Source: Ranitomeya imitator
Lineage: Eukaryota
NCBI RefSeq assembly: GCF_032444005.1
Contig: NC_091286.1
Span: 654,782,001-654,815,046, forward strand
DNA length: 33,046 nt
Direction of reading: 5' to 3'
Shown piece by piece: positions 2,995 through 33,046 of the stretch. Position numbers and translations under genes: made by a program. A model generated the notes under the pieces. It was not told the origin of the DNA. It did no database searches and worked only from the letters and a program-made list of their open reading frames with translations. Position 1 is the stretch's first letter, and each line of letters begins with the position of its first letter.

Positions 2995-4319
2995 TAGAGT
3001 TGAGCGACTTTTTTACTGTTTTAGGATCGAGTCGGGTTTCGCGAAACCTGACTTTGTCAAAAGTCGGGTTGGGTGAAATTGGCCGATTGCGAAAAGTCGG
3101 GGGCCGACCGAAACCCAAAACCCAATGCAAGTCAATGGGAAATCAAAGCCGGCTGTGAGTGGAGGACAGGAAAACACCTACAGTGTCCATTTTAATGCCA
3201 AAAACATCAATTCTTATTTCTTAAGCTTGTCAATCTTAATTTACTTTATAATAAGTTAGGCATTCAAAACAGTGGGTCATTTGGTTAAAGTTGTGGGGGG
3301 GTAGGGCTGGCTCAAGATTTTTGTGGGCCCAGTAAACGCGGAATATGTCACGGCGGTGGAGCAGGGAGAGTTAAGTATTTAAACTTTGCAAGTGCTGTGA
3401 TCCTGAGCAAGCAGGGGGGCCCTCTTGTTTGCCCTGGCACAGGGCCCTTCATAGTACGGCAGTGTGTTTGACTGGTGGTGCCTCCCACTGCCAGACACTT
3501 TTGCGTACAATGAGGGGCCCTGTGCCAGTGACGTCGCCAACGAGTATGCCCCCCTCACCTGATGAAGGAACCTGTACTTTCATCTGCACTTTCTTTGTCC
3601 CAGTGTAAGGTGGTATAGTATGCGGGAAGGGGAACCTGACTTTACACAGCCAGAATCTGACCCTGCTGAAAGTCAGGTTCCCCTTCCCGCATACTATACC
3701 ACCTTACACGGGGGCAAAGAGGAAGGTGCAGATGAAAGCGCAGGTTCCTTCATCAGGTAAGGGGGGCATACTCGTTGGCGACGTCACTGGCACAGGGCCC
3801 CTCATAGTACGCAAAAGTGTCCCTGGCAGTGGGAGGCGCCACCCACTGTCAAACACACCGCCATACTATGAGGGGCCCTGTGCCAGTGCCAACGAGTGGG
3901 CCCCCCTGCTTGCTCAGGATCACAGCACTTGCAAAGTTGAAATACTTACCTGTCCCTGCTCCACCGCCGTGACATATTTCGCGTTTCCTGGGCCCATCAA
4001 AATCATAAGCCAGCCCTACCCCCCCACAACTTTAGCCAAATGACCCCCTGCTTTCAATGCCTAACTATTATAAAGTAAATAAAGATTGACAAGCTTAAGA
4101 AATAAGAATTGATGTTTTTGGCATTAAAATGGGCACTGTAGGTCTTTTCTTGTCCGCCACTCACTGTCTACTTTGATTCCCCATTGACTTGCATTGGGTT
4201 TTGTGTTTCGGTCGGCCCCCGACTTTTCGCAATCGTCAGATTTCACCCGACCCGACTTTTGACTGTCGGGTTTCGCAAAACCCGACTCGATCCTAAAAAG
4301 TATAAGTTGCTCAACTCTA
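2995..4319. mobile_element. 1.3-kb foldback (whole-length inverted repeat) non-autonomous element with hAT-like TAGAGTTGAGC termini
   Basis: Left arm 2995-3643 is the reverse complement of right arm 3669-4319. The innermost 41 bp are perfect and flank a 25-nt spacer. No convincing 8-bp TSD (GATATAAG vs ATCATAAC). Confidence 0.8.
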
Positions 4320-5466: not shown

Positions 5467-6179
5467 AAGGCCCCTTCACATTAAGCGACACCGACAACTA
5501 TGTCGATCGCTGCAGCGTCGCTGTTTGGTCACTGGAGAGCTGTCACACAGACCGCTCTCCAGCGACCAACGATCCCGAAGTCCCCGGGTAACCAGGGTAA
5601 ACATCGGGTTACTAAGCGCAGGGCCGCGCTTAGTAACCCGATGTTTACCCTGGTTACCAGCGTAAAAGTAAAAAAAAAAAACAGTACATACTTACCTACC
5701 GCTGTCTGTCCTCGGCGCTCTGCTTCTCTGGTCTGGCTGTGAGCACAGCGGCCGGAAAGCAGAGCGGTGACGTCACCGCTCTGCTTTCCGGCTGACCGCT
5801 CACAGCCAGTACAGGAGGAGTGCAGAGAAGGGCAGCGCCGGGGACAGACAGCGGTAGGTAAGTATGTAGTTTTTTTTTTTTTTACTTTTACGCTGGTAAC
5901 CAGGGTAAACATCGGGTTACTAAGCGCGGCCCTGCGCTTAGTTACCCGATGTTTATCCTGGTTACCAGTGAAGACATCGCTGGATCGGCGTCACACACGC
6001 CGATCCAGCGATGTCCATGGGAGATCCAGCGACGAAATAAAGTTCTGGACTTTGTTCAGCGACCAACGATCTCCCAGCAGGGGCCTGATCGTTGGTCGCT
6101 GTCACACATAACGATTTCCTTAACGATATCGTTGCTACGTCACAAAAAGCAACGATATCGTTATGTGTGAAGGTACCTT
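5467..6179. mobile_element. Palindromic MITE built of nested hairpins
   Basis: Termini TA|AAGGCCCCTTCACA ... TGTGAAGGTACCTT|TA. Perfect 42-bp central palindrome at 5751-5792. A 72-bp hairpin at 5587-5658 is mirrored at ~5895-5967. Confidence 0.85.
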
Positions 6180-8542: not shown

Positions 8543-11366
8543 TAAATAATGAAGAAAATATATATATATTATTCCCATAAATACATTTCTTTATGTAAAT
8601 AAAAAAAAAACAATAAAAGTACACATATTTAGTATCGCCGCGTCGTAACGACCCGACCTATAAAACTGGCCCACTAGTTAACCCCTTCAGTAAACACCGT
8701 AAGAAAAAAGAGGCAAAAAACAACGCTTTATCATACCGCCGAACAAAAAGTGGAATAACACGCGATCAAAAAGACAGATATAAATAACCATGGTACCGCT
8801 GAAAGCATCATCTTGTCCCGCAAAAAACGAGCCGCCATGCAGCAACATCAGCAAAAAAATAAAAAAGTTATAGTCCTCAGAATAAAGTGATGCAAAAATA
8901 ATTATTCTATAAAATAGTTTTTATCGTATAAAAGCGCCAAAACATAAAAAAATTGATATAAATGAGGTGTCGCTGTAATCGTACTGACCCGAAGAATAAA
9001 ACTGCTTTATCAATTTTACCAAACGCGGAACGGTAAACGCCTCCCCCAAAAGAAATTCATGAATAGCTGGTTTTTGCTAATTCTGCCTCACAAAAATTGG
9101 AATAAAAAACGATCAAAAAATGTCACGTGCCCGAAAATGCTACCAATAAAAACGTCAACTCGTCCCGCAAAAAAGACCTCACATGACTCTGTGGACTCAA
9201 ATATGGAAAAATTATAGCTCTCAAAATGTGGTAACGCAAAAAATATTTTTTGCAATAAAAAGCGTCTTTCAGTGAGTGACGGCTGCCAATCATAAAAATC
9301 CGCTAAAAAACCGGCTATAAAAGTAAATCAAACCCCCCTTCATTACCCCCTTAGTTTGGAAATAAATACATTTTAAATTTTTATTTTTCCCTTTTTCCCA
9401 TTAGGGTTAAGGCTACGGTTAGGGTTAAGGCTACGGTTAGGGTTAAGGCTACGGTTAGGGTTAAGGCTACGGTTAGGGTTAAGGCTACGGTTAGGGTTAA
9501 GGCTACGGTTAGGGTTAAGGCTACGGTTAGGGTTAAGGCTACGGTTAGGGTTAAGGCTACGGTTAGGGTTAAGGCTACGGTTAGGGTTAAGGCTACGGTT
9601 AGGGTTAAGGCTACGGTTAGGGTTAAGGCTACGGTTAGGGTTAAGGCTACGGTTAGGGTTTGGATTACATTTGCAGTTGGGATTAGGGTTAGGGGTGTGT
9701 TTGGATTAGGGTTTCAGTTATAATTGGGGGGTTTCCACTGCTTAGACATATCAGGGGCTCTCCAAACGCGACATGGCGTCCGATCTCAATTCCAGCCAAT
9801 TCTGCGTTGAAAAAGTAAAACCGTGCTCCTTCCCTTCCGAGCTCTCCCGTGTGCCCAAACAGGAGTTTACCCCAACATATGGGGTATCAGCGTACTCAGG
9901 ACAAATTGGACAACAACTTTTGGGGTCCAATTTCTCCTGTTACCTTTGGGAAAATACAAAACTGGGGGCTAAAAAATGTTTTGTGGGAAAAAAAGATTTT
10001 TTAATTTTCACGGCTCTGCGTTATAAACTGTAGTGAAACACTTGGGGGCTCAAAATTCTCACAATACATCTAAATAAGTTCCTTGGGGGGTCTAGTTTCC
10101 AATATGGGGTCACTTGTGGGGGGTTTCTACTGTTTAGGTACATTAGGGGCTCTGCAAACGCAATGTGACGCCTGCAGACCATTCCATCTAAGTCTGCATT
10201 CCAAATGGCGCTCCTTCCCTTCCGAGCCCTCCCATGCGCCCAAACGGTGGTTCCCCCCCACATATGGGGCATCAGCGCACTCAGGAGAAATAGGACAAAT
10301 TGCACAACAAATTTTAGGGTCCAGTTACCCTCGGGAAAATACAAAACTAGGGGCTAAAAAATATTTGTGGGAAAAAATTTGTTTTATTTTACAGCTCTGC
10401 GTTATAAACTTCTGTGAAGCTCTTGGTGGGTCAAAGTGCTCACCACACCTCTAGATAAGTTCCTTAGGGGGTCTACTTTCCAAAATGGTCACTTGTGGGG
10501 GGTTTCAATATTTAAACACATCAATGGCTCTTCAAACGCAACATGGCGTCTCATCTCAATTCCAGTCAATTTTGCATTAAAGTCAAACGGCGCTCCTTCC
10601 CTTCCGAGCTCTCCCATGCGCCCAAACAGTGGTTTACCCCCACATATGGGGTATCGGCGTACTCAGGACAAATTGTACAACAAGGTTTGGGGTCCATTTT
10701 CTCCTGTAACTCTTGGCAAAATAAAACAAATTGGAGCTGAAGTAAATTTTTTGTGAAAAAAAGTTAAATGTTAATTTTTATTTAAACATTCCAAAAATTC
10801 CTGTGAAACACCTGAAGGGTTAATAAACTTCTTGAATGTGGTTTTGAGAACCTTGAGGGGTGCAGCTTTTAGAATGGTGTCACACTTGGGTATTTTCTAT
10901 CAATATAGACCCCTCAAAATGACTTCAAATGAGATGTGGTCCCTAAAATAAAATGGTGTTGTAGAAATGAGAAATTGCTGGTCAACTTTTAACCCTTATA
11001 ACTCCCTAACAAAAAAAAATGTTGGTTCCAAAAGTGTGCTGATGTAAAGTAGACATGTGGGAAATGTTACTTATTAAGTATTTTGTGTGACATATCTGTG
11101 ATTTAATTGCATAAAAATTCAAAGTTGGAAAATTGCAAAATTTTCAAAATTTTCGCCATGTTTCCATTTTTTCACAAATAAACGCAGGTAATATCAAAGA
11201 AATTTTTCCACTATCATGAAGTACAATATGTCACGAGAAAACAATGTCAGAATCACCGGGATCCGTTGAAGCGTTCCAGAGTTATAACCTCATAAAGGGA
11301 CCGTGGTCAGAATTGTAAAAATTGGCCCGGTCTATAACGTGCAAACCACCCTTGGGGGTAAAGGGG
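7935..11366 (+). mobile_element. Complete ~3.4-kb non-autonomous piggyBac-like element, copy 2
   Basis: TTAA (7931-7934) CCCCTTT ... AAAGGGG TTAA (11367-11370). Removing it restores TTTTTGCA-TTAA-AAACCATCTT, which matches the family's own internal sequence. No transposase. Confidence 0.85.
9401..9658 (+). repeat. Perfect 18-bp higher-order telomere-variant array (TTAGGG TTAAGG CTACGG)x14, plus one TTAGGG
   Basis: 9401-9652 is 252 bp, i.e. 14 identical units by direct count. Confidence 0.95.
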
Positions 11367-11370
11367 TTAA

Positions 11371-13050: not shown

Positions 13051-13703
13051 TCATCTACACATGAATTTTTGTATTGTGGAGGTGAAGTATCTGAAGGGTG
13101 TCTAACAAACAATGAAAAAGGGTGAACTTGCCAAATGAAAGTTAATTTTTAAAAGGGTTTTTTTCTCAGTTAGCTTTTGTAAGTATAAAATGTATACCCC
13201 ACTGGTGTTGAAGGTGCACTTGTGCATAATAGCTATCTAAAATCCATATAACCCAAGGAGTAGATACGAATAACGAGAGATCAGTATGATACCCTATCCT
13301 CACTATTTACCCCTGGAATGATCAATACATATAGATAACAATAACAATAACTTCCTAATGGACTTAAATAAGGTCCTATCTATACTACTGCTCTGATATC
13401 TGCAGTTCCTCATAAGGCCATTTAGACCAGGTAAAATAACCTTAAAGATTATGTCTAAATGTATGCACATCTATCGTGATACCTATAGTTGTTCAAATTT
13501 CTTTACTCCCAAAAACAGCGTTTAATAAGGGACAGCGCACTTAGCACATCTATCTGATGGTCTACCTACTAGCAGAGGTTGGCACCCTAAGATGACGTAC
13601 AATTGCTTTCCCTAAGCTCCTATTCACACCCCGACAGACCACAATAGAAGAAAGAGCCAGATTGGCGTGTGTCCAAGTTTTCTGTTGGGATCTATGGGCA
13701 GCT

Positions 13704-14330
13704 TGGCAAATTAAGTTTACAGCTGAAATACACAGGGAATCGATCGCATTTCTAGATCTCACAATAGGCAAAGATGGGGATGGTTACATCACCAAAACAT
13801 TCTGGAAACCAACATCAACAAACCGTCTTACACTGGGATAGCCATCACCCAGTCCTCAAACGGGTTATACCTAAAGGACAGTTTTTACATATTAAAAGAA
13901 ACTTTTAAGAAAATCGTGATTTTTGTGTGGCACAGGCACATGATCTCAGCCATAGGTTCTCAAAAAGGGGTTACCCAAGACAAGTAATTGATGAAGCATG
14001 AGATCATGCTGCTTGTCAGAACCGACGTCAATTACTACACCCAAGACAGTGATGACCTAATGGATATACCCAGAATAATTGGTACATTTGATAGCCAGTC
14101 CGGGGCTGTCTTTAATATCTTAAAGAAATACTGAGGAATCTTGGGAGCTGAACCAGAATTAAAAAAATACTTACCAGCCACCCCAAAATTAACCTATAGG
14201 AAGGGGAGATCCCTTAAGGACTGTTTGGTCCATAGCTTTTATCAAAGGCCTCTACAACAGGGGACATGGCTGGATCAAAAGCCCTGTGGCACATTCAAAT
14301 AGGGTGATTGAACATGTGTATGCATGGGCA
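13704..14330 (+). pseudogene. Penelope-like element RT C-terminal/linker remnant
   Basis: Manual translation across frameshifts and stops: IKFTAEIHRESIAFLDLTI..TKTFWKPT / LHWDSHHP..IPKGQFLHIKRN / FSKRGYP / TYRKGRSLKDCLVHS. These motifs are typical of the PLE RT thumb and linker. Confidence 0.8.
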
Positions 14331-19254: not shown

Positions 19255-21190
19255 TTATAAACATGAGGCAAAACTTAGGTACTCATTTAGACACTGGGGG
19301 CCATGGTATCCAGGGTCATGACGTTTGGCTCAGAAAGACCAAATGGATCTTTTATAATTACCCCCTCTGATTCCCAGATGTATAATGTCAATACCCCTCA
19401 CCTTAAGTGTCTTGGCGTCACAATCATGATACGTCTTAAAGTGACGGGGAGTGGTTTTAAGGTCAAAGATTGGCCACTGTCTTGGCTGCACAAATGTCCC
19501 ACAGATGCTCATGCACCCGCATGCATAGTTCCCTAGAAGTCAAACAAATGTATATCATGGAGCACCCGCATGTAGCATAATATATCACATTGGTGCTACC
19601 ATATGATAGATGCTGTCTAATTTGAATTTGTTTGGAACCATCAGATGACTGAAAGGTAGAGCAACGCAGGACATTTGGGCAGGCAAGACAATAGCTGCAA
19701 GGATTGGAACTGGGAACAGAACCCCTGGTACCAAATGGGTTGGTCGTCTCGGGAATATAATGGATCTTAACCAGTAGGTCATTGGTAGTTTTCCATCTAT
19801 GACTTCTAGGATGTCAAAAAACTTCAATTGATGGGCTTGTCACTGAGAATAGCCCAATGTTTTGAGTATAATGTGATTCCGCTCAAGATTAAATGTGGAG
19901 ATGACATGTTTTTTCACCACCACTACTACTCCTCCCATCTTGTGGGTATAAAAGATCATTACAGGGGGTCCTCTAACCTCTCATTATACACCTGTTACTG
20001 TAACCACGATTCTGGAAGTGTGCCCTGAGGTCCAAGGCCTGCCTCTCAAATCGATCATCAGTGGAGCAGATCCATTTTATCCTCAGGAACTGTTCAACCA
20101 GGACTGCTCTAATGTTTGCAGAATTGTGTGAAGAATAGGCATGTATAAGAGCTTTGACCAAAGTTGGCTTCCTATAGACTTCTGTCTGCGTTGATGAGTA
20201 TCAATCAGACAGACATCCAGGAAGGCAATAACATTGGGATCAAACTTGTAAGTCAATTTGATGTTAAATGAATTCACATTAAGAAATGCCATAAATTCCT
20301 CGAGCTGATGCACCGTCCCATCCCACAAAAATAAGGTGTCATCAATATATTGCAGCCAGCACAGCACATGGGAGGGAGGTGGCTTGGCCCCATAGCCAAA
20401 AAGGATCCCTCCCAGGAGCCCAGGAAGAGATTAGCATATGAGGGCGCACAGGCTGTGCCCATGGCTGAGCCATGCTTCTGTAGATAAAATTTGTCTTTGA
20501 AGACAAAAAGAAATTGTGGGTGAGAACAAAGTGCGTGGGCTCAAGGATAAGTTCACACATAGGGCCGTCCAGGTTGGAGGTCCCAAAGAAGAGGCGGATT
20601 GCATCCAAACCATGTGTGTGGTCAATACAGGTGTATAAGGATTCAATATCAGCCGACAGTATTGTTATCCACAAGGATGCAGTCGACGCACTCCAGAACG
20701 TCCATCGTGTCCCGAATGAATGATGGTAATGATTAAACAAGAGGTTTTAAGTAAAAAAACAATACATTTACAAATTGACTCTCAAAGGCCCACAATCCCA
20801 GACACGATGGGGCGTCCCGGGGGGTCGAGGGCATCCTTGTGGACCTTGGGGAGAAGGTTAAAGATGGGGATCTTGAGGGACTTTACCATAAGACTCTCAA
20901 AAACCACCATAGTAATAACATTACCTTCGAAAGCTCGAATCAAGATCTGCTGAAGTTCCAGTCAGAAGGAGGAAACCGGATTATATGATTCACTTTTTAT
21001 ACAAATGGAGGTCCCTCAATTGGTGAAAGGCCTTCTCCTCATACTGTGCAGTTGGTCAGACGATGTTCTCTCCCTTGTCCGCGAGTTTAAACACCACACC
21101 AGGAAGTGACTGTAATTCAGTAATAGCCCGGCGCTGCGCATGTTATGGCCGGACTTAATGACTATGGAGGAAACCTCGTCGATCTGGGCA
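19255..21190 (-). pseudogene. Penelope-like element RT plus GIY-YIG, frameshifted
   Basis: In order on the minus strand: LLPKVHKD..PPGRPIVSG; SADIESLYTCIDH; MGTACAPSYANLFLG; WLQYIDDTLFLWDG; AFLD; FLRIKWICS..RGYS; C..C..C linker; VIYYATCGCSMIYI.LTSREL; HFKTYH..RGGN; LDTMAP..LNE. Confidence 0.92.
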
Positions 21191-22738: not shown

Positions 22739-23209
22739 TTGTTTGGCGGCCAACTAACACCCTATTGGGGGTCTTTATACCTCTGCCTGCGGTAAGTCTT
22801 CTCTGTTAAATTGTTTTGAACTATAGTGATATTACTTATCAGAATGGGGATCTTACCCTAGCAATATGATGCACTTTCGCACAGGCACTTTAAATGCACA
22901 TATTTCCATCTACTCTATTAGGCAGTAGTATTGAAGTACCCCCTTATTACCATTGCTGCCTTTTCCTGTATTTAAGTATTTTTGATGAATTGTGGTGATA
23001 TACTGGGATTTTTTGAACTTTCAATAAAACTTGTGTTTATTAATCGTACCTGATTACTCTTGTTCCTCTGGTTTTATATAGCCTACTTAAAACCTGTAAC
23101 TGTATATCAGTGAGAATCAGAGGAGAGGTTCAGTACCTGCAGCCCTCCCTGGGCACCACCTGAGGCAAATCTCCCACCAGAAACTTTGTTCTTAGTAGAT
23201 GGTCTAGTA

Positions 23210-23371
23210 GAGGGGTCCCCAACTCCAGTCCTCAAGGCCCACCAACAGGTCATGTTTTCAGGATTTCCTTTGCATTGCACAGGTGATGCAATTATTACCT
23301 GGGCAAGACTAAGGAAATCCTGAAAACATGACATGTTGGTGGGCCTTGAGGACTGGAGTTGGGGACCCCTG
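23210..23371. mobile_element. hAT MITE (162 bp)
   Basis: Long TIR (G)AGGGGTCCCCAACTCCAGTCCTCAAGGCCCACCAACA. 8-bp TSD GTCTAGTA (23202-23209, 23372-23379). Confidence 0.92.
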
Positions 23372-23439
23372 GTCTAGTAGTAATGCGCTTAGTTTGGTGG
23401 ACACTCTTCTTCAGACCCACTTACTGAGATGTCTGAGGT

Positions 23440-23991
23440 GGTATATCAACATAAAACATATTAGATTTAGTTGAAGCTGATCTGGAATGAGAAGTGTTGC
23501 TATATTGCTGATGGAATCGGTCATTGGGGTTACTACACCAATACACCCTAGAGGAAATCCTGTCCTGGAAATCACTTTAAATTTTTTTTTTTTTAATAAC
23601 TTGAATTTCATTGACCCAGAGCTCCAAAAATGGGCCAATCTCATCATTGAGTTTTTTGAGAACATCGCCCGTCATACCTTTCTGTAAGGTGATCTGCAGA
23701 GCCTCAATTTCTACATCCATGGATTCCAGAGAATTTTGATTCATTGCTTTAAGAAGTTCCAAAAACCCCTTTGAAAAGGTGTTCATTAATTCCTCCGTGG
23801 GATCAGATCTTTTTGGATATTTGTCCAGGAACGCATTGTTCCACTATATACGGGTCCTCCTCTTAAGTCCTTAAAATGATAAATAGCCTCCTGTTGGTCC
23901 CCGCTACACCCATCCGTACCCCACGATTGCGGTCTTGGAAAGCGTCTTTAATCTGTGCATGCCATGTGCGGTCGCGTGCACGAAAATCCAT
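23440..23991 (-). pseudogene. PLE ORF start and N-terminal domain remnant, probably the 5' part of the 19255-21190 element
   Basis: ATG at 23991 gives MDFRARDRTWHAQIKDAF..; then WNNAFLDKY../IPR; ORF 23577-23786 (..LELLKAMN..LWVNEIQVIKKKK); then RVYW. Same strand as, and upstream of, the RT. Confidence 0.6.
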
Positions 23992-24330
23992 GAAAAGGCT
24001 GGGATAAACTTTGTATATTGATTAGTTCTGTGTTTTTCACAAAGGAAAACCCAGTGGCATTTTAAATGCAAATGGCGGTATTACAGAATAGTAAACCACC
24101 ATGACAAAATTATTTTTAACTCCATAGATGCAAGCAAAAGCAGGAGAAGAAACTGAGTATCCAATAAGTCAATAAAAAAGTACAAATTTTATTGGAATAT
24201 AATTAAATCCATTAAAGAGATAAAGAATGACATTGATGCGAGCCAGGCTATATGGGACATCGACCAAGGCAGAAGCTCGTACTCACAGCCTTCACACCTG
24301 GACTCTTCAGCACTCCAGCATTGCCTAGAT

Positions 24331-24514
24331 CAGTGTTCCAAGTCCGGTCCTCAAGAGCCACCAGCAGGTCATGTTTTGAGGATTTCCTTAGTATTGCACA
24401 GGTTATAATTTCATCACCTGGACACGCAAGCATTCAATGACCTGTGCAATACTAAGAAAATCCTGAAAACATGACCTGTTGGTGGCTCTTGAGGATCGGA
24501 CTTGGGGAACACTG
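24331..24514. mobile_element. hAT MITE (184 bp), related to 23210-23371
   Basis: TIR CAGTGTTCC..AGTCCGGTCCTCAAGAGCCACCA. 8-bp TSD GCCTAGAT (24323-24330, 24515-24522). Confidence 0.92.
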
Positions 24515-24642
24515 GCCTAGATGATTCATGAGAAGTTATAAAACTTTCACTTTCTGTAGAATTTAACAGAAAAAAGTAACCACTTCATCATTGGTGAAAA
24601 CTGAATAGTACTTATTGCCCTATTTTAAGACCTTTCTTTTAT

Positions 24643-26989: not shown

Positions 26990-27910
26990 ACAACAATTCC
27001 TTGTTAAGGCCAGAGGGCAATAGAGACTCAAGATTAAAGATCCATCTGGACTATCTGTAGGCGCCTGCTATGGCATTCGCCACCTTTAGTGCTGGTGTTC
27101 TCTATTTGCAGCCCAATAACCCTAATGTTGCTGGGTGTACTTTGATGATATTGGAAAAAATGTTCAGCAACCGAGGTCAAGGTTTTTCCCTTAAGGATAT
27201 CAACCAGTGTCAGATTGATGGTAGAAATAGGCTTGCTTTTTTTAATTTTTTTTTTTCTAACCTCCTGCAATGTCTGGCTGACTTAGACATTGTTGCAAGC
27301 ACATACAGTATGATGGCATTAATCAGATTTTTAGTCTTGCAGTTAATACTGTATATGCCTTTTAGAGAAAAACATTTACAATGTGTGGGGTTGATGAAGG
27401 AATCCCTCGTAGGGAGCATAAGAGGGCATACATGGGAAGGAGCCCCTAAGGGACATACCCCTAGTCAATTTCTGGGTCGGCCTATGGAAGTGGCTCATGG
27501 TGAAGTGATCACCCAGATTTTGGGCCCTTTAGGCAGTTGAGGGTGACCCCTGACAGCTTATCTGGTCTGTATCCTCCAGTGATCCTTTGGAATTTCCTTC
27601 ACCTTACAACATTAAGTGGTGTTGTAGTCTGTAACGAACCAGATATATCCCTCATCTCAATCCCTAGATTGTAATTTCTACAAGAGTGCTTTCGCTCACT
27701 GGAAAGGAGAGGACAGGTATCCCTGTTGCTTGAAACGATCAGTCAACCCATGTTCATGATGTAGAAAATCCTCATCTCTGGTACAATTGTGTCTAGTCCT
27801 CAGGAACTGGTCCACTGGCACTCCCTTTTTTGTATGTGATGGATGGAAGCTAGAAAACTGAATCATGCTGTTTGTTGCCATAGGTTTACGAAACGGCTTG
27901 GTACATCTTT
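26990..27910 (-). pseudogene. PLE RT C-terminus plus GIY-YIG remnant
   Basis: RKPMATNSMIQFSSFHPSHTKKGVPVDQFLRTRHNC..FKQQGY; INCKTKNLINAII; QEVRK; SVAEHFFQYH..IRVIGLQ..KGGE. Confidence 0.85.
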
Positions 27911-28769: not shown

Positions 28770-29974
28770 GGAGCCCTAGTTTGTAGAACCTATATGCACC
28801 AAGATTCCCTATTGAGGAGCTTTCTATGGTGATCTTGTTTTATACCTATAACCCTACAATTTGTATTATCCCCCATCGTGGAATGATAAATGTTTAGTGG
28901 CTTCTAAGCACTTTTCAAGAACCATTTTGTTTATAGCATCTGATAAGTGGCTTCTTATTCTCACTTAAAGTTGATTTGTTGTACAACCGACATATTGTTA
29001 AAATGTAGAATTTGTACATTTTGTAACTTACAATAAGAACTTTTTATATGCAATTAATTTTCTATGATTTGTGTAACTGTAGAATAAAATTCCTTAGTAT
29101 TTTCCATGATTTCAGCATGTACATACTGTAGTGTTAACACTTACATGAACCCACTGTGTGGAGCCGAATTTTATCCCTATCGATCTGTTGGTTTAATATA
29201 CAAAAAAACTGACCGGCACCTCCTAATTGTGAATATGTGCAAGCTGCCAGACTGCATTATATAGAAAAAAAGAAAGCACAGCAGCACTATGTTTAAGTTT
29301 AGGCCATGTGAAAACAAAGAAAACATTAAAAACATTTAATCTAGATTTTACTACTTCGAGAAAAATTTTTTGAATTTTTTTTTTACTTACGGAAATTAAT
29401 GAAAATGAAGGTTCTTGAGCATACATGAATTGGCCAATTTATGCTCTATCAACCACGGCAAGGTGACCTCCCTCTGATGGGTACCTGTTCTACTGTACAT
29501 GCCTTCTCTTGGACGATCAACCTACAATTTTAGACACGTCTACTCTCTGGTTTAGCCTACAATTTATGGGCAAGTAGAGCTGATTATGGCCACATGAAGG
29601 TCAATGGGAGTGCAGAATCTCCCATTCCCTAGTCTTGATATAGACTAGGGGATGGGAGATTTCCCAGAGTAGGTGCCTTCAAGTGGAATATCTAGATTAA
29701 GTATTTAATTTGTCATTTTGATATATAATGGGTTTTTGTTTTTCTTATAATCCCCTTAATTTCTGAGAACTGTGGGCTATACGGTGTAACAAACGAAACT
29801 GGATGGTGAAGTCATTTTCTTTTGTAGTTTCTTTTTTCTCTTTCAACCTATTGTCTCTGTTGCTGTGGGTTACTACAGTTCTTGCCCTGTCCATCATCCA
29901 CTTGGCGTATCCTCGTTCTTGAACTCTAATTTTCACCTTAAGAGCTTATTCATTGAAGGTGACCTCCTGTGATG

Positions 29975-30855
29975 GGCTGATCTAGTTCTGTGGTACTGGA
30001 TGGACATTGTTCCCCACCGCATGTAAATGGGTTAGAGTGTGATCCTGATCTTCCTGAATCGTCACTCAGATAAGTTCTCTTAAATGCCTATAAGTATGTC
30101 TCCTGATGAACTGATTTCAGGGAAACGCGTCGAGATTTTCATACTTTAAAGAGAATTTTATTCTTGGTATTGCACGTTTTGGATTTTGTTTATTTTATTT
30201 ACACTGTTTGCAGTGCCATTTTGGGATTTGTTATGTTTTATTCTTATTGAGTATTGTTTTTGCCCCTAACTGTACATCTTATATAGTATTTTGTTATCCC
30301 CTTACAAGTAGCCTAGGGTTTTAATAGGGGTAGACTACATGGAGTGGGGGCGCCATTTGCGCAGGATCTTAGGGTGCCAACCCCCACTGGCAGGTAGGGG
30401 GAACTAGGGTGCTGATATAGGCTTCCTTAGTTTGTTGCTTATTACTACTTATGCAACATCCAAACGAGTGTTGGGGTATGCACTTTAGTATCTGGGTAGT
30501 GCAATATGTTTATCTTTAGTTACTGTTAGTTTGAGTGTATGCTCTGCTGTTTGATTTTTTTCTTGCACGTAAGGGTCTATTAGGGCGATTTAGGGATAGC
30601 CTACGTTGAGCGGGGGCGCCATTGCGCAGGTTATATAGGGTGCCAACCTCCGCGGCAAGGTAGGGGACAGATAGTTGGGACCCTAGGGATCGAGAGCACC
30701 CTGTATCTTTAACTTATATCTCTGTGTCAAACAGTAGATACTGGTTTTAGGTTGTATGTGGTATGTGTTTTTTATCATAATAAAACTTAACATTTAATAA
30801 TTTTCTTTGTGTATCTTATTCTATTCATATATGGTGTTCCTTCGCTGTGAATTTT
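29975..30855 (+). mobile_element. 881-bp non-coding hammerhead-bearing retro-insertion (solo pseudo-LTR or retrozyme-like)
   Basis: Flanked by an exact 15-bp direct repeat TGACCTCCTGTGATG (29960-29974, 30856-30870). Interrupts the PLE coding remnant. Contains a hammerhead and AATAAA (~30779). Confidence 0.7.
30099..30135 (+). ncRNA. Minimal type I hammerhead ribozyme
   Basis: TCTC CTGATGA A CTG attt CAG G GAAA C GC GTC GAGA: 4-bp stem I, canonical CUGAUGA and GAAA core, palindromic stem III, GUC cleavage triplet (after 30131). Confidence 0.8.
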
Positions 30856-31048
30856 TGACCTCCTGTGATGTATAGCTCCTAGAGCAGATAAAACAATAAA
30901 AAAAAAAATCCTACTTGGTGAATTTGAGTGACAAGATGTAGCATAAAGTGTGGAATTTAGTGATTAGTTACCCCGTTTAGGAAAATGCAAAGTCCGCTGG
31001 GGCAAAAAAAAATTCCAAATATCAAAAAAATCATTTTTTTTAGGTTGT

Positions 31049-31627: not shown

Positions 31628-33046
31628 TGTTAAACATAAAACCCAAATTCCTATCATTATGGTTCATACATGTCACAAATTCTCCGGCTGCCTCTTCCGT
31701 CCCCTCCTAGATCAGGAGGAGGTTGTCAAAATAGCGGCCATACCACCTGATTTGGGAGCGGAGGTCGGACGCAGCTGAGAAAATAAATGCCTCCTCCCAA
31801 ATTGCCATGTCAATATTAGCTAGAGATGGTGAAAAGCCCGTGCCCATTGGGCTCCCTGTTTCTGAATGTGAAAAATACTATTAAACGAAAATTGTGTGGT
31901 AAGGGCTACAGAATTTTAAGATAAATGTTTTTTATGGACACAGTATAATTACTATATAATTAAAAAAAATGACAGATTTAATTGCTAAGGTATGGGGATA
32001 CTAAGATGTAGGCCAGTGACATTGCATGATACCCATATGGGAACCATCCAGGGATGAAATTACATGTTAGGTGTCTCTTAATTAACAAGGAATATTTTTT
32101 TTTATGAAGTGCTTAAGATGCATATCTAACCATGAACTAAGTTTTTCTCCTAAATTACCTATCCCTGCTACAATGGGATGTAGAGGAGGAGGAAACTGAC
32201 CCTTATGAATTTTTAGGGAGGGAGTGAAAAATGGGGGTAACTGGAAAATGTACTAAGAAATTGTCAGAAGATTTTTTTTTTTTATCACCGCTCCCATTTC
32301 AACATCCTCCTGTAATACATTTTCCAAAGCCTTTAGGAACTTCGTCAAATGTATCAAAGCTTGACCTTTGAACCTACTACTGTCTTAAAACTTAACCATA
32401 TTTAATTTTTCATATAGTTCTGCTTTCAGAATTACTACTGCTGCCTCTTATCAGATCTTAGTATGATCATGTCCTTAGCGTTTGAAAGTTCTTTCAATGC
32501 TTTTTTTTATTTTTTACACATTCGATTTGGATTGTTCTTTTCCAGTATTTTTTTTTTTTTTCAATGTATGTAAATCTTTTCCCACTAATTCCTGAAAATC
32601 AGGGACTGCAGGGGATATATATATATATTTGTTATTATTATTCTATATTGAGAAATAAAACCAAAATATTGGAAGTGCACAATTCATACTTAAGATTTTA
32701 CAGAATATAAACCCATAAGTTTACCCCCAGTGCGGCATGTACCGGTATGAAGTCCTGAGATGTGTGAAGAGCAGATGTGTATGGGGGTACGGTACTTTGC
32801 CCACCGTGCTCCTACTAAGGCCCTGACACGAACGCTGGAGACGTGCAAAGTTAAAAATGTGTAGGATCATCTAGACCGGATGATGGACATCGAAATCCTG
32901 AGCGCTGTTTAGTATTGTGTGTGATCTTCACTGCTCATGGGGCGGTGGCTGCTTTTATATTTTCACTTGATGTATGATGTGGATGGAGTATCGGCAGAAG
33001 CGGTTGGCGTGACATGAGAACACATGCTAGAACTCCTTTCTTCAAA

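Follow-up and report, generated by a model that had tools for sequence, protein, structure and literature searches.

A conserved 73-nt element in the end repeats of one clade of Neptune-type Penelope-like retrotransposons: a candidate protein-docking site on the transcript

The Insertion and the Element to Which It Belongs

The window analysed here is a stretch of 33,046 nt of Ranitomeya imitator DNA, the features of which are listed in Table 1. Two copies of a motif, designated A and B, were found at the places given by the original prediction. Both lie within a single insertion, the ends of which are the positions where matches to dozens of other copies begin or stop. The insertion is flanked by a direct repeat, one to three bases of which are common to the element ends.

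Table 1. Positions of the motif copies and of the associated features in the window.
Feature	Position	Strand	Description
Broken ORF2 piece, Penelope-like element	13715..14310	+	back to back with the inverted pLTR piece holding the third motif copy
Third, decayed motif copy	13556..13641	-	3' half kept, 5' strand deleted
15-bp direct repeat, left copy	29960..29974	+	likely target-site duplication
pLTR piece of Neptune-type Penelope-like element	29975..30855	+	881 bp, from the likely transcription start to the element 3' end
Minimal type I hammerhead motif	30098..30136	+	CUGAUGA ... GAAAC; predicted cut after 30131
Motif copy A	30326..30398	+	5' half 30326-30355, variable middle, 3' half 30371-30398
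Motif copy B	30592..30664	+	5' half 30592-30621, 3' half 30637-30664
15-bp direct repeat, right copy	30856..30870	+	flanks the insertion 29975-30855

The two-copy stretch was compared with the frog's own genome (5.96 Gb), which gave 42 matches from the 40 scored of 2,580 candidates, and many of these matches sit as inverted or tandem pairs. In the full-length relatives L034 and L036, the inserted stretch corresponds to the end part of a repeat present on both sides of the open reading frames (ORFs). ORF1 of these relatives has ~270 codons, and ORF2 consists of a reverse transcriptase (RT), a CX2-5CxxC linker, and a GIY-YIG-type C-terminus. The ORF2 proteins of L034, L036, and L163 gave an RVT_1 match scoring under the curated cut-off; the YIDD and GVVYLF..YVGKT motifs were read directly off the translation. 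Many homologues of ORF2 are labelled as RT or GIY-YIG proteins, and the closest database proteins are those of hyloid frogs.

Judged by the features named in the available text of PMC8557442, the insertion is a Neptune-type Penelope-like element (PLE). The RT is followed by a C-terminal GIY-YIG endonuclease in all three ORF2 proteins, the linker lies between the two (CGRCKFC in L034), and the pLTRs carry a minimal hammerhead and occur as tandem or inverted copies. According to the same text, the linker is a feature of Neptune, and Nematis has it as well.

The elements carrying the motif differ from the Neptune PLEs, as these appear in the available parts of PMC8557442 and PMC4209133, by an extra 73-nt pLTR element (the motif) unmentioned there and by the N-terminal ORF1 region, which is either fused or split off. 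In the window's family, ORF1 and ORF2 overlap as ATGA (stop-start; L034:2192-2195), which possibly allows stop-restart translation. In another carrier family, ORF1 and ORF2 are fused into a single 1068-aa frame (L163:4728-7931), and the sister clades described below likewise have single frames of about 1,050-1,080 aa. A young array of carrier elements with a 5,059-bp period and units in both orientations was seen at G000:C1:9404000-9426000 (L152-L164); at least one of its units has an open 1068-aa frame.

The Motif and Its Copies in the Genome

The predicted ~65-nt copies were correctly located but too short: the conserved unit spans ~73 nt and starts further 5' (30326 and 30592) with AGGG-NN-AGYC-NN-CG. 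The consensus of the 5' part reads AGGG NN AGYC NN CG NN GAG Y GGGGG CGCC A. Next come a variable middle of 10-26 nt, in which CG(Y) is found, and the 3' part, U AGGG YGCC AA CCYCCRC (N) GNN AGGYAG. The 17-nt exact minus-strand match to copy A, from which a third, decayed copy had been proposed, was also recovered (13577-13593); this copy, however, lies in a pLTR piece of a different family (13126-13713, minus) and has lost its 5' strand through an internal deletion. Copies A and B scored 86.6 and 85.7 bits with a covariance model that had both of them in its training set, and the third copy scored 17.9 bits.

Genome-wide, the core pattern gave 2,480 exact matches, the 5' half alone 8,337, and the 3' half alone 10,501, with 0 matches for the reversed pattern in each case; the recurrence is far above chance. 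When one base of the 3' half was forced to be different, 189 further matches were obtained, compared with 1 in the control. The 3' half was found no more than 50 nt after the 5' half in 30/30 loci fetched by the 5' half. The free positions also stayed fixed, as 97 of the 100 3'-half matches listed read YGCCA, four loop positions being unconstrained by the pattern. Each half thus remains conserved when the other half serves as the bait.

All fetched loci together contained 251 distinct complete copies, which formed 110 contexts when grouped by their flanks; the earlier context sets comprised 44, 69, and 91. These counts exclude copies lacking either half by the patterns, and 33 partial ones were kept apart. 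Between 91 contexts, the 30-nt core is 89% identical, a value inflated because the patterns picked the copies, and the flanks are 27% and 30% identical. Meanwhile, the ORF2 proteins of the carriers are 41-58% identical to that of L034 outside L034's own family group. Each repeat holds one to three motif copies.

The terminal AGGYAG is exact in 199/211 copies. The density of AGGG is 39/kb just upstream of the motif and 21/kb just downstream, compared with 2-8/kb further out. These tracts were seen at -36, -26, and -16 from the motif start and at +10 to +30 after the motif, with a spacing of ~10 nt. The tracts do not conform to the usual G-quadruplex pattern: four G3 tracts separated by loops of at most 12 nt were present in 1/91 contexts, compared with 8.6 in shuffles, and in 1/91 in the predicted fold. 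Exact-pattern scans of viral, metagenome, and prokaryote contigs gave 0 matches each, and a protein scan of metagenomes returned a single 27% match.

Carriers of the Motif Form One Clade

In a 60-row ORF2 tree built with FastTree (SH-like support), the motif carriers form one clade of 33 rows with a support of 100, and the motif belongs to the conserved parts of the end repeats of this clade of Neptune-type PLEs. The clade also holds proteins of Hyla, Anomaloglossus, Dendrobates, and Phyllobates, the motif status being taken from Ranitomeya imitator DNA alone. The 40 loci of two sister clades (36-39% identity), taken with 1.5 kb on each side, gave 0 motif matches with the profile or the covariance model at E<=1. 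The motif is likewise absent from the tandem pair L223/L224 of a sister clade, the whole spacer of which was covered. One apparent outside carrier, L115, with an ORF2 piece of 32-34% identity beside the motif, belongs in fact, in decayed form, to the carrier clade itself. The ORF2 pieces of L104 and L175, at 30-38%, fall in other clades, and these loci were not counted as carriers.

A hammerhead lies on the same strand within 1.5 kb of 126/246 motif copies (upstream of 102 and downstream of 24). It is found on the opposite strand only in 23/246, which inverted insertions would explain, and is missing within this distance in 97/246. Two layouts were distinguished. In the first one, to which the window belongs, the motif lies in the 5' leader between the hammerhead and ORF1. 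In the second one, the motif follows the ORF2 stop at a distance of 35-80 nt and precedes the promoter-like region. As the families with the second layout form a single subclade (support 100), the motif likely moved once. It is position-independent, being found in the 5' leader in some families and shortly past the stop codon in others. On a read-through transcript, only the post-stop part would hold the motif in both layouts.

One Pair of the Motif Covaries, Probably on the Sense Strand

The difference noted originally between the inner stems is present in the window: positions 30345/30386 of copy A form U-A, the corresponding 30611/30652 of copy B form C-G, and there is a G-U besides. The positions that differ, the Y of GAGY and the R of CCRC, form the top pair by corrected mutual information. 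In the 110 contexts, the pair is C-G in 55, U-A in 27, U-G in 24, and other in 4, with C-A in 0; C-A occurs in 2 of the 251 copies. The 40 held-out copies, which were fetched afterwards and later included in the 251, gave C-G 17, U-A 15, U-G 6, C-A 0, and other 2. The two columns change ~24 and ~19 times on a rough tree of short rows, which argues that the covariation is not one inherited event. Both bases stand in CpG contexts. CpG decay does not explain the pattern, because decay alone would give C-A as often as U-G. The commonness of U-G and the absence of C-A point to pairing on the sense strand, and the motif probably pairs in RNA rather than in single-stranded DNA.

Apart from this pair, which alone covaries, the proposed pairs show either no variation or changes in one partner only. 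The originally proposed 7-bp stem is 96.5% paired. An alternative fold, in which a 5-bp stem is joined through an AACC bulge to GGCGCC/GGYGCC, is 95.5% paired with several one-sided changes. The constrained energies of the two folds lie within 2 kcal/mol of each other in 71/91 contexts, and beyond the covarying pair two near-equal hairpins fit the motif.

Several details of the predicted structure are confined to some families or did not hold. The outer CTAC/GTAG stem is family-specific, as its two middle pairs form in 9/69 and 20/69 contexts. The proposed switch pairing of TGCC with GGCA is no commoner than in shuffles (36.6% of cells paired vs 37.7%), and the motif may still be a two-state element by other pairings. 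The predicted GCGC hairpin is general in its CG(Y), with CG in 94/110 contexts, and not in the rest, the third pair forming in 37/67. CGY is kept in the middle of 59/69 contexts, compared with 11 in shuffles, and could pair with GCG or with a second molecule.

RNAalifold gave a weak consensus (-3.9 kcal/mol) without the covarying pair, and the folding energy is no better than that of shuffles (mean z -0.23; -0.36 and -1.61 for the window copies). Duplexes of the upstream part with the tail and of the middle with the tail (p 0.68 and 0.12) were dropped. The covariation and the conservation between unalignable flanks support the prediction of a selected element pairing on the plus strand over a simple recent duplication. 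The motif is real and under selection, and it is likely an RNA element.

The Rfam 15 covariance models gave no match over the motif (window, E<=1; 29974-30857, E<=10), as the original prediction had expected, and the sensitivity of these scans is limited because they missed the minimal hammerhead. Twister, twister-sister, pistol, hatchet, and hairpin ribozymes gave no match in these Rfam scans and were compared with the motif by eye, through their consensuses. In the same way, tRNA-like structures, kink-turns, twister, xrRNA, and CTCF and YY1 sites were set against the column counts, and none of them fits.

The Hammerhead and the Ends of the Copies

The motif lies 230 nt downstream of a minimal type I hammerhead, which the original prediction had missed; such hammerheads in PLE repeats are described in the available text of PMC4209133. 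The 5' end of the window copy lies 32 nt past the TATA-like box of the full element L036, and this copy therefore likely reproduces the 5' end of the transcript. In a sample of 30 loci from the window's family, which includes the window itself and some members of inverted pairs, three copies begin at the likely transcription start, two at the hammerhead cut site, and two more at one other place upstream of the hammerhead. The start ends correspond to L036:7916-7919 (window 29974) and the cut-site ends to L036:8075-8076 (window 30132). These shared ends possibly record the RNA start and hammerhead cleavage in vivo. No 5' end within the motif is shared among the 30 loci, as the nine ends located in or close to motifs all differ, and the junctions in the 33 partial motifs are scattered with no common 5' end.

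A hammerhead-like motif with the core CCGAGGA instead of CTGATGA was seen in a sister clade (L224:4497-4535), immediately 3' of a TATA-like box and a short way ahead of the ORF.

A Protein-Docking Site as the Preferred Reading

A docking site is the best fit for a sense-strand, partly paired, position-independent, and almost invariant motif that is present in one to three copies and restricted to one clade. We tentatively regard it as a protein-loading signal on the element's RNA, most likely for the element's own ORF1/RT protein. This candidate role agrees with the RT-recognition or packaging signal put forward in the original prediction. On the sense RNA, the motif would likely fold as an irregular hairpin, in the lower stem of which GYGGG would pair with YCCRC. 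The stem would be continued by two more G-C pairs and a small GCG/CGY hairpin, or by GGCGCC/GGYGCC over the AACC bulge. The invariant purine-rich flanks AGGG..AGYC..CG..GA and G..AGGYAG would make up the recognised surface. Loaded in this way onto the full-length transcript, the protein, most likely the element's own ORF1/RT, might capture its own RNA more readily, ahead of the internal start of reverse transcription at the 3' end of the repeat.

The element's own protein is ranked first because the motif tracks one protein clade, adjoins the stop codon in one subclade, and has an analogy in Poseidon-type PLEs. As described in the available part of PMC11167929, the protein of a Poseidon-type PLE needs a defined RNA segment, and reverse transcription starts internally. 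In the anole Poseidon element PAc studied there, this requirement of the protein concerns a cis-acting RNA near the pLTR, which resembles the frog motif by description. The needed PAc segment is the first 172 nt of the ORF beside the start site; the frog motif, in contrast, is non-coding, often doubled, and 0.2 to >1 kb away from the 3' end. Two observations speak against docking of the own protein: the sister clades, with related ORF1 and RT, manage without the motif, and the distance from the motif to the 3' end differs by >1 kb between the layouts, unlike the fixed Poseidon site. The near-invariance of the motif across proteins that are only 41-58% alike could be explained no less well by a host factor or a catalytic core.

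Alternative Readings of the Motif

A host factor that binds the motif and exports or stabilises the unspliced transcript, like the retroviral CTE or other post-transcriptional elements, ranks second and is rather unlikely; in its favour, the motif is position-independent, sense-strand, often doubled, and nearly invariant across diverged proteins. The CTE of MPMV/SRV-1 and of NXF1 intron 10 is likewise a bulged hairpin in two copies that works independently of position and has a conserved 5'-splice-site-like sequence close by (available parts of PMC4338338, PMC4330390, PMC4330393, and PMC4174252; the CTE is also treated in PMC4588558). The likeness does not extend to the details. The AAGACA in the internal loop, by which the NXF1-binding CTE is defined in the available text of PMC4330393 and PMC4174252, is present in 0/91 contexts (GACA at the last four loop places in 12/91), and the pairing register differs. 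The 3' half of the motif resembles one CTE strand with a local score of 18.1 vs 13.3 in shuffles (p 0.01, the choice being post hoc), yet a profile test of this strand was not significant (p 0.10), and the other strand shows no likeness (p 0.62 and 0.76). This comparison rests on two printed primers, because searches of 60 kb next to the best NXF1 match and of 20 kb next to a weaker one did not recover the CTE of the frog's NXF1. It is unlikely, in our estimation, that the motif is a dimerisation signal, in which the CG of the apical loop would kiss the same loop of a second copy and so pair two RNAs. In its favour, 94/110 contexts have retained the loop CG in the face of CpG decay. The tetranucleotide around it is self-complementary in 56/94 vs 45 expected, and the CG sits in a tetraloop on at least two pairs in 54/94 vs 42 expected, both without correction for kinship. 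Among the 94, the loops read GCGC in 34, CCGC in 15, GCGT in 10, TCGT in 9, ACGC in 6, TCGA in 6, and ACGT in 5, with others making up the rest. This reading would further connect the motif with minimal hammerheads acting as dimers, as proposed for PLEs in the available text of PMC4209133, and with the copying of two templates into inverted insertions. The GACG-loop dimer and packaging hairpins that link retroviral RNAs (available part of PMC516450) are alike in being tandem hairpins with a conserved loop CG. The motif loop, however, is larger, variable, and not GACG, and 38/94 are not self-complementary. Intramolecular pairing with GCG explains the same CGY, with Y after CG in 85/94, and the sister clades have hammerhead-like motifs without this element.

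We consider it decidedly improbable that the motif represents, in addition to the hammerhead, another self-cleaving ribozyme belonging to a new class, an idea also raised by the original prediction. Such a ribozyme might have an HDV-like core and either lack its substrate helix or receive it in trans. The motif's many invariant unpaired bases, short helices, and variable insert are as in small ribozymes, and a core with a P2, a 3-bp P3, a CC/GG, and a C-N-A strand can be drawn. In HDV-like ribozymes, a P1 helix directly after P3 holds the cleavage site, and L3 follows a consensus with a U.G pair and P1.1. In the motif, an HDV-type L3 is found in 0/91 contexts and a P1 directly after P3 in 16/91. 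A 6-7 bp P1 anywhere upstream, at 55/91, is no commoner than in swapped controls (66), and the P1-type duplex signal is weak (p 0.03); membership of the HDV class was therefore rejected. The minimal HDV-like (theta) ribozymes of PMC10879173, as far as the available text describes them, resemble the motif in that an order mimicking P2, P3, P1.1, and the C-N-A strand without P4 can be drawn; the motif differs from them in having neither a P1 nor an HDV-type L3, and it gave no Rfam match. The same text places the catalytic cytosine at the start of J4/2; the candidate C at this position is kept in 90/91 contexts, also in a family with changed neighbours, and most neighbours are equally kept. Retrotransposons often carry ribozymes (available text of PMC6765202), yet no common 5' end was found in the motif, in the 30 copies of one family or in the 33 partial motifs, and a cut just past the stop codon would separate the ORF from the repeat needed for copying. 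As the sample of ends is small, slow or paired cleavage may still occur. There is little chance that the PLEs of hyloid frogs carry, besides the hammerhead, an undescribed small ribozyme, present at >10,000 places in this genome, whose HDV-like core would lack a P1 of its own and cleave slowly or else require a pair of copies. A still smaller chance is given to an RNA-processing element, in which AG/GYAGG would serve for 5' splicing or U1 binding under the control of the adjacent AGGG tracts, which are hnRNP-type sites. The constancy of AGGYAG and the enrichment of AGGG next to the motif agree with this reading. So does the occurrence of introns in PLEs (available text of PMC4209133). The second intron base, however, would be C in 34/69 contexts. 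Spliced genomic copies were looked for and rejected, as 0/43 and 0/37 alignments end at the two donor-like sites, and no GT..AG joint was seen among the joints listed in the run contigs described below. The stem would also be left unexplained. Least of all do we expect a DNA element (a promoter, an enhancer, or a site of the element's endonuclease) with incidental pairing. The ~10-nt spacing of the AGGG tracts, the unremarkable folding energy, and GCGGGGGCG, which we take to resemble an EGR-type site, count for it. Double-stranded DNA, however, does not give the asymmetry of common U-G and absent C-A, the length of the spacer ranges between 10 and 26 nt and shows no 10-nt periodicity, and the motif stands on either side of the promoter.

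Novelty and Meaning of the Motif

The host element is of a known kind, and the motif is an apparently undescribed cis-element of it. No report of such a motif in PLEs was found in the open literature searched. The papers retrieved with the core 11-mer concern other topics, judged by their titles, and neither the core 11-mer nor the words Penelope, frog, Xenopus, and amphibian occur in the main text of a 2026 ribozyme preprint. In their available parts, the PLE papers describe the hammerhead and the priming region only (bioRxiv 10.64898/2026.07.22.740005, PMC11167929, PMC4209133, PMC8557442, PMC6765202).

How PLEs handle and recognise their own RNA is largely open, and the in vitro system of PMC11167929 merely brackets the binding region in the part of the text available. 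The motif has sharp limits (73 nt) and naturally occurring variants; it is present in one clade and absent from sister clades, occupies two positions, and has young intact carriers (L163, L034). With a defined motif, its natural variants, and carriers next to non-carriers, RNA recognition in a telomerase-related retroelement becomes directly testable. If the motif is a protein site, it will be a modest but real addition to the anatomy of PLEs; if it is catalytic or a dimer signal, it will be a new RNA class in vertebrate genomes.

Additional Sequence Features

Six sequencing runs gave shares of 0.05-0.09. At 80% likeness, the contigs of four runs (three studies) cover both motif copies and mostly continue into unlike flanks; they carry no information on expression because the RNA nature of the runs is only guessed. 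Two of the runs, X3 and X5, gave one contig each on L036:8295-8630 with a depth of 458 and 602, far above the others, and these contigs carry two motif-like stretches.

More decayed PLE ORF pieces, 24-38% identical to L034, lie in the window at 19472-21139, 27699-27905, and 31632-32342 (minus). Long fold-back elements were seen at 3019-4298, 5587-5968, and 23203-24521, and two copies of an element with 18-bp and ~390-bp tandem units at 677-2606 and 9347-11370.

Near the 3' end of the inserted element, a 33-nt A/T-rich near-palindrome (window 30776-30808) has a self-match in most copies. A short AGGG..CCCT hairpin stands 3' of the last motif copy in the window (30673-30703) and in L041-L068, covering many families of the GCGCAGG type. 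Its loop is often GCAC or GGCAC, which is complementary to GUGCC of the motif.
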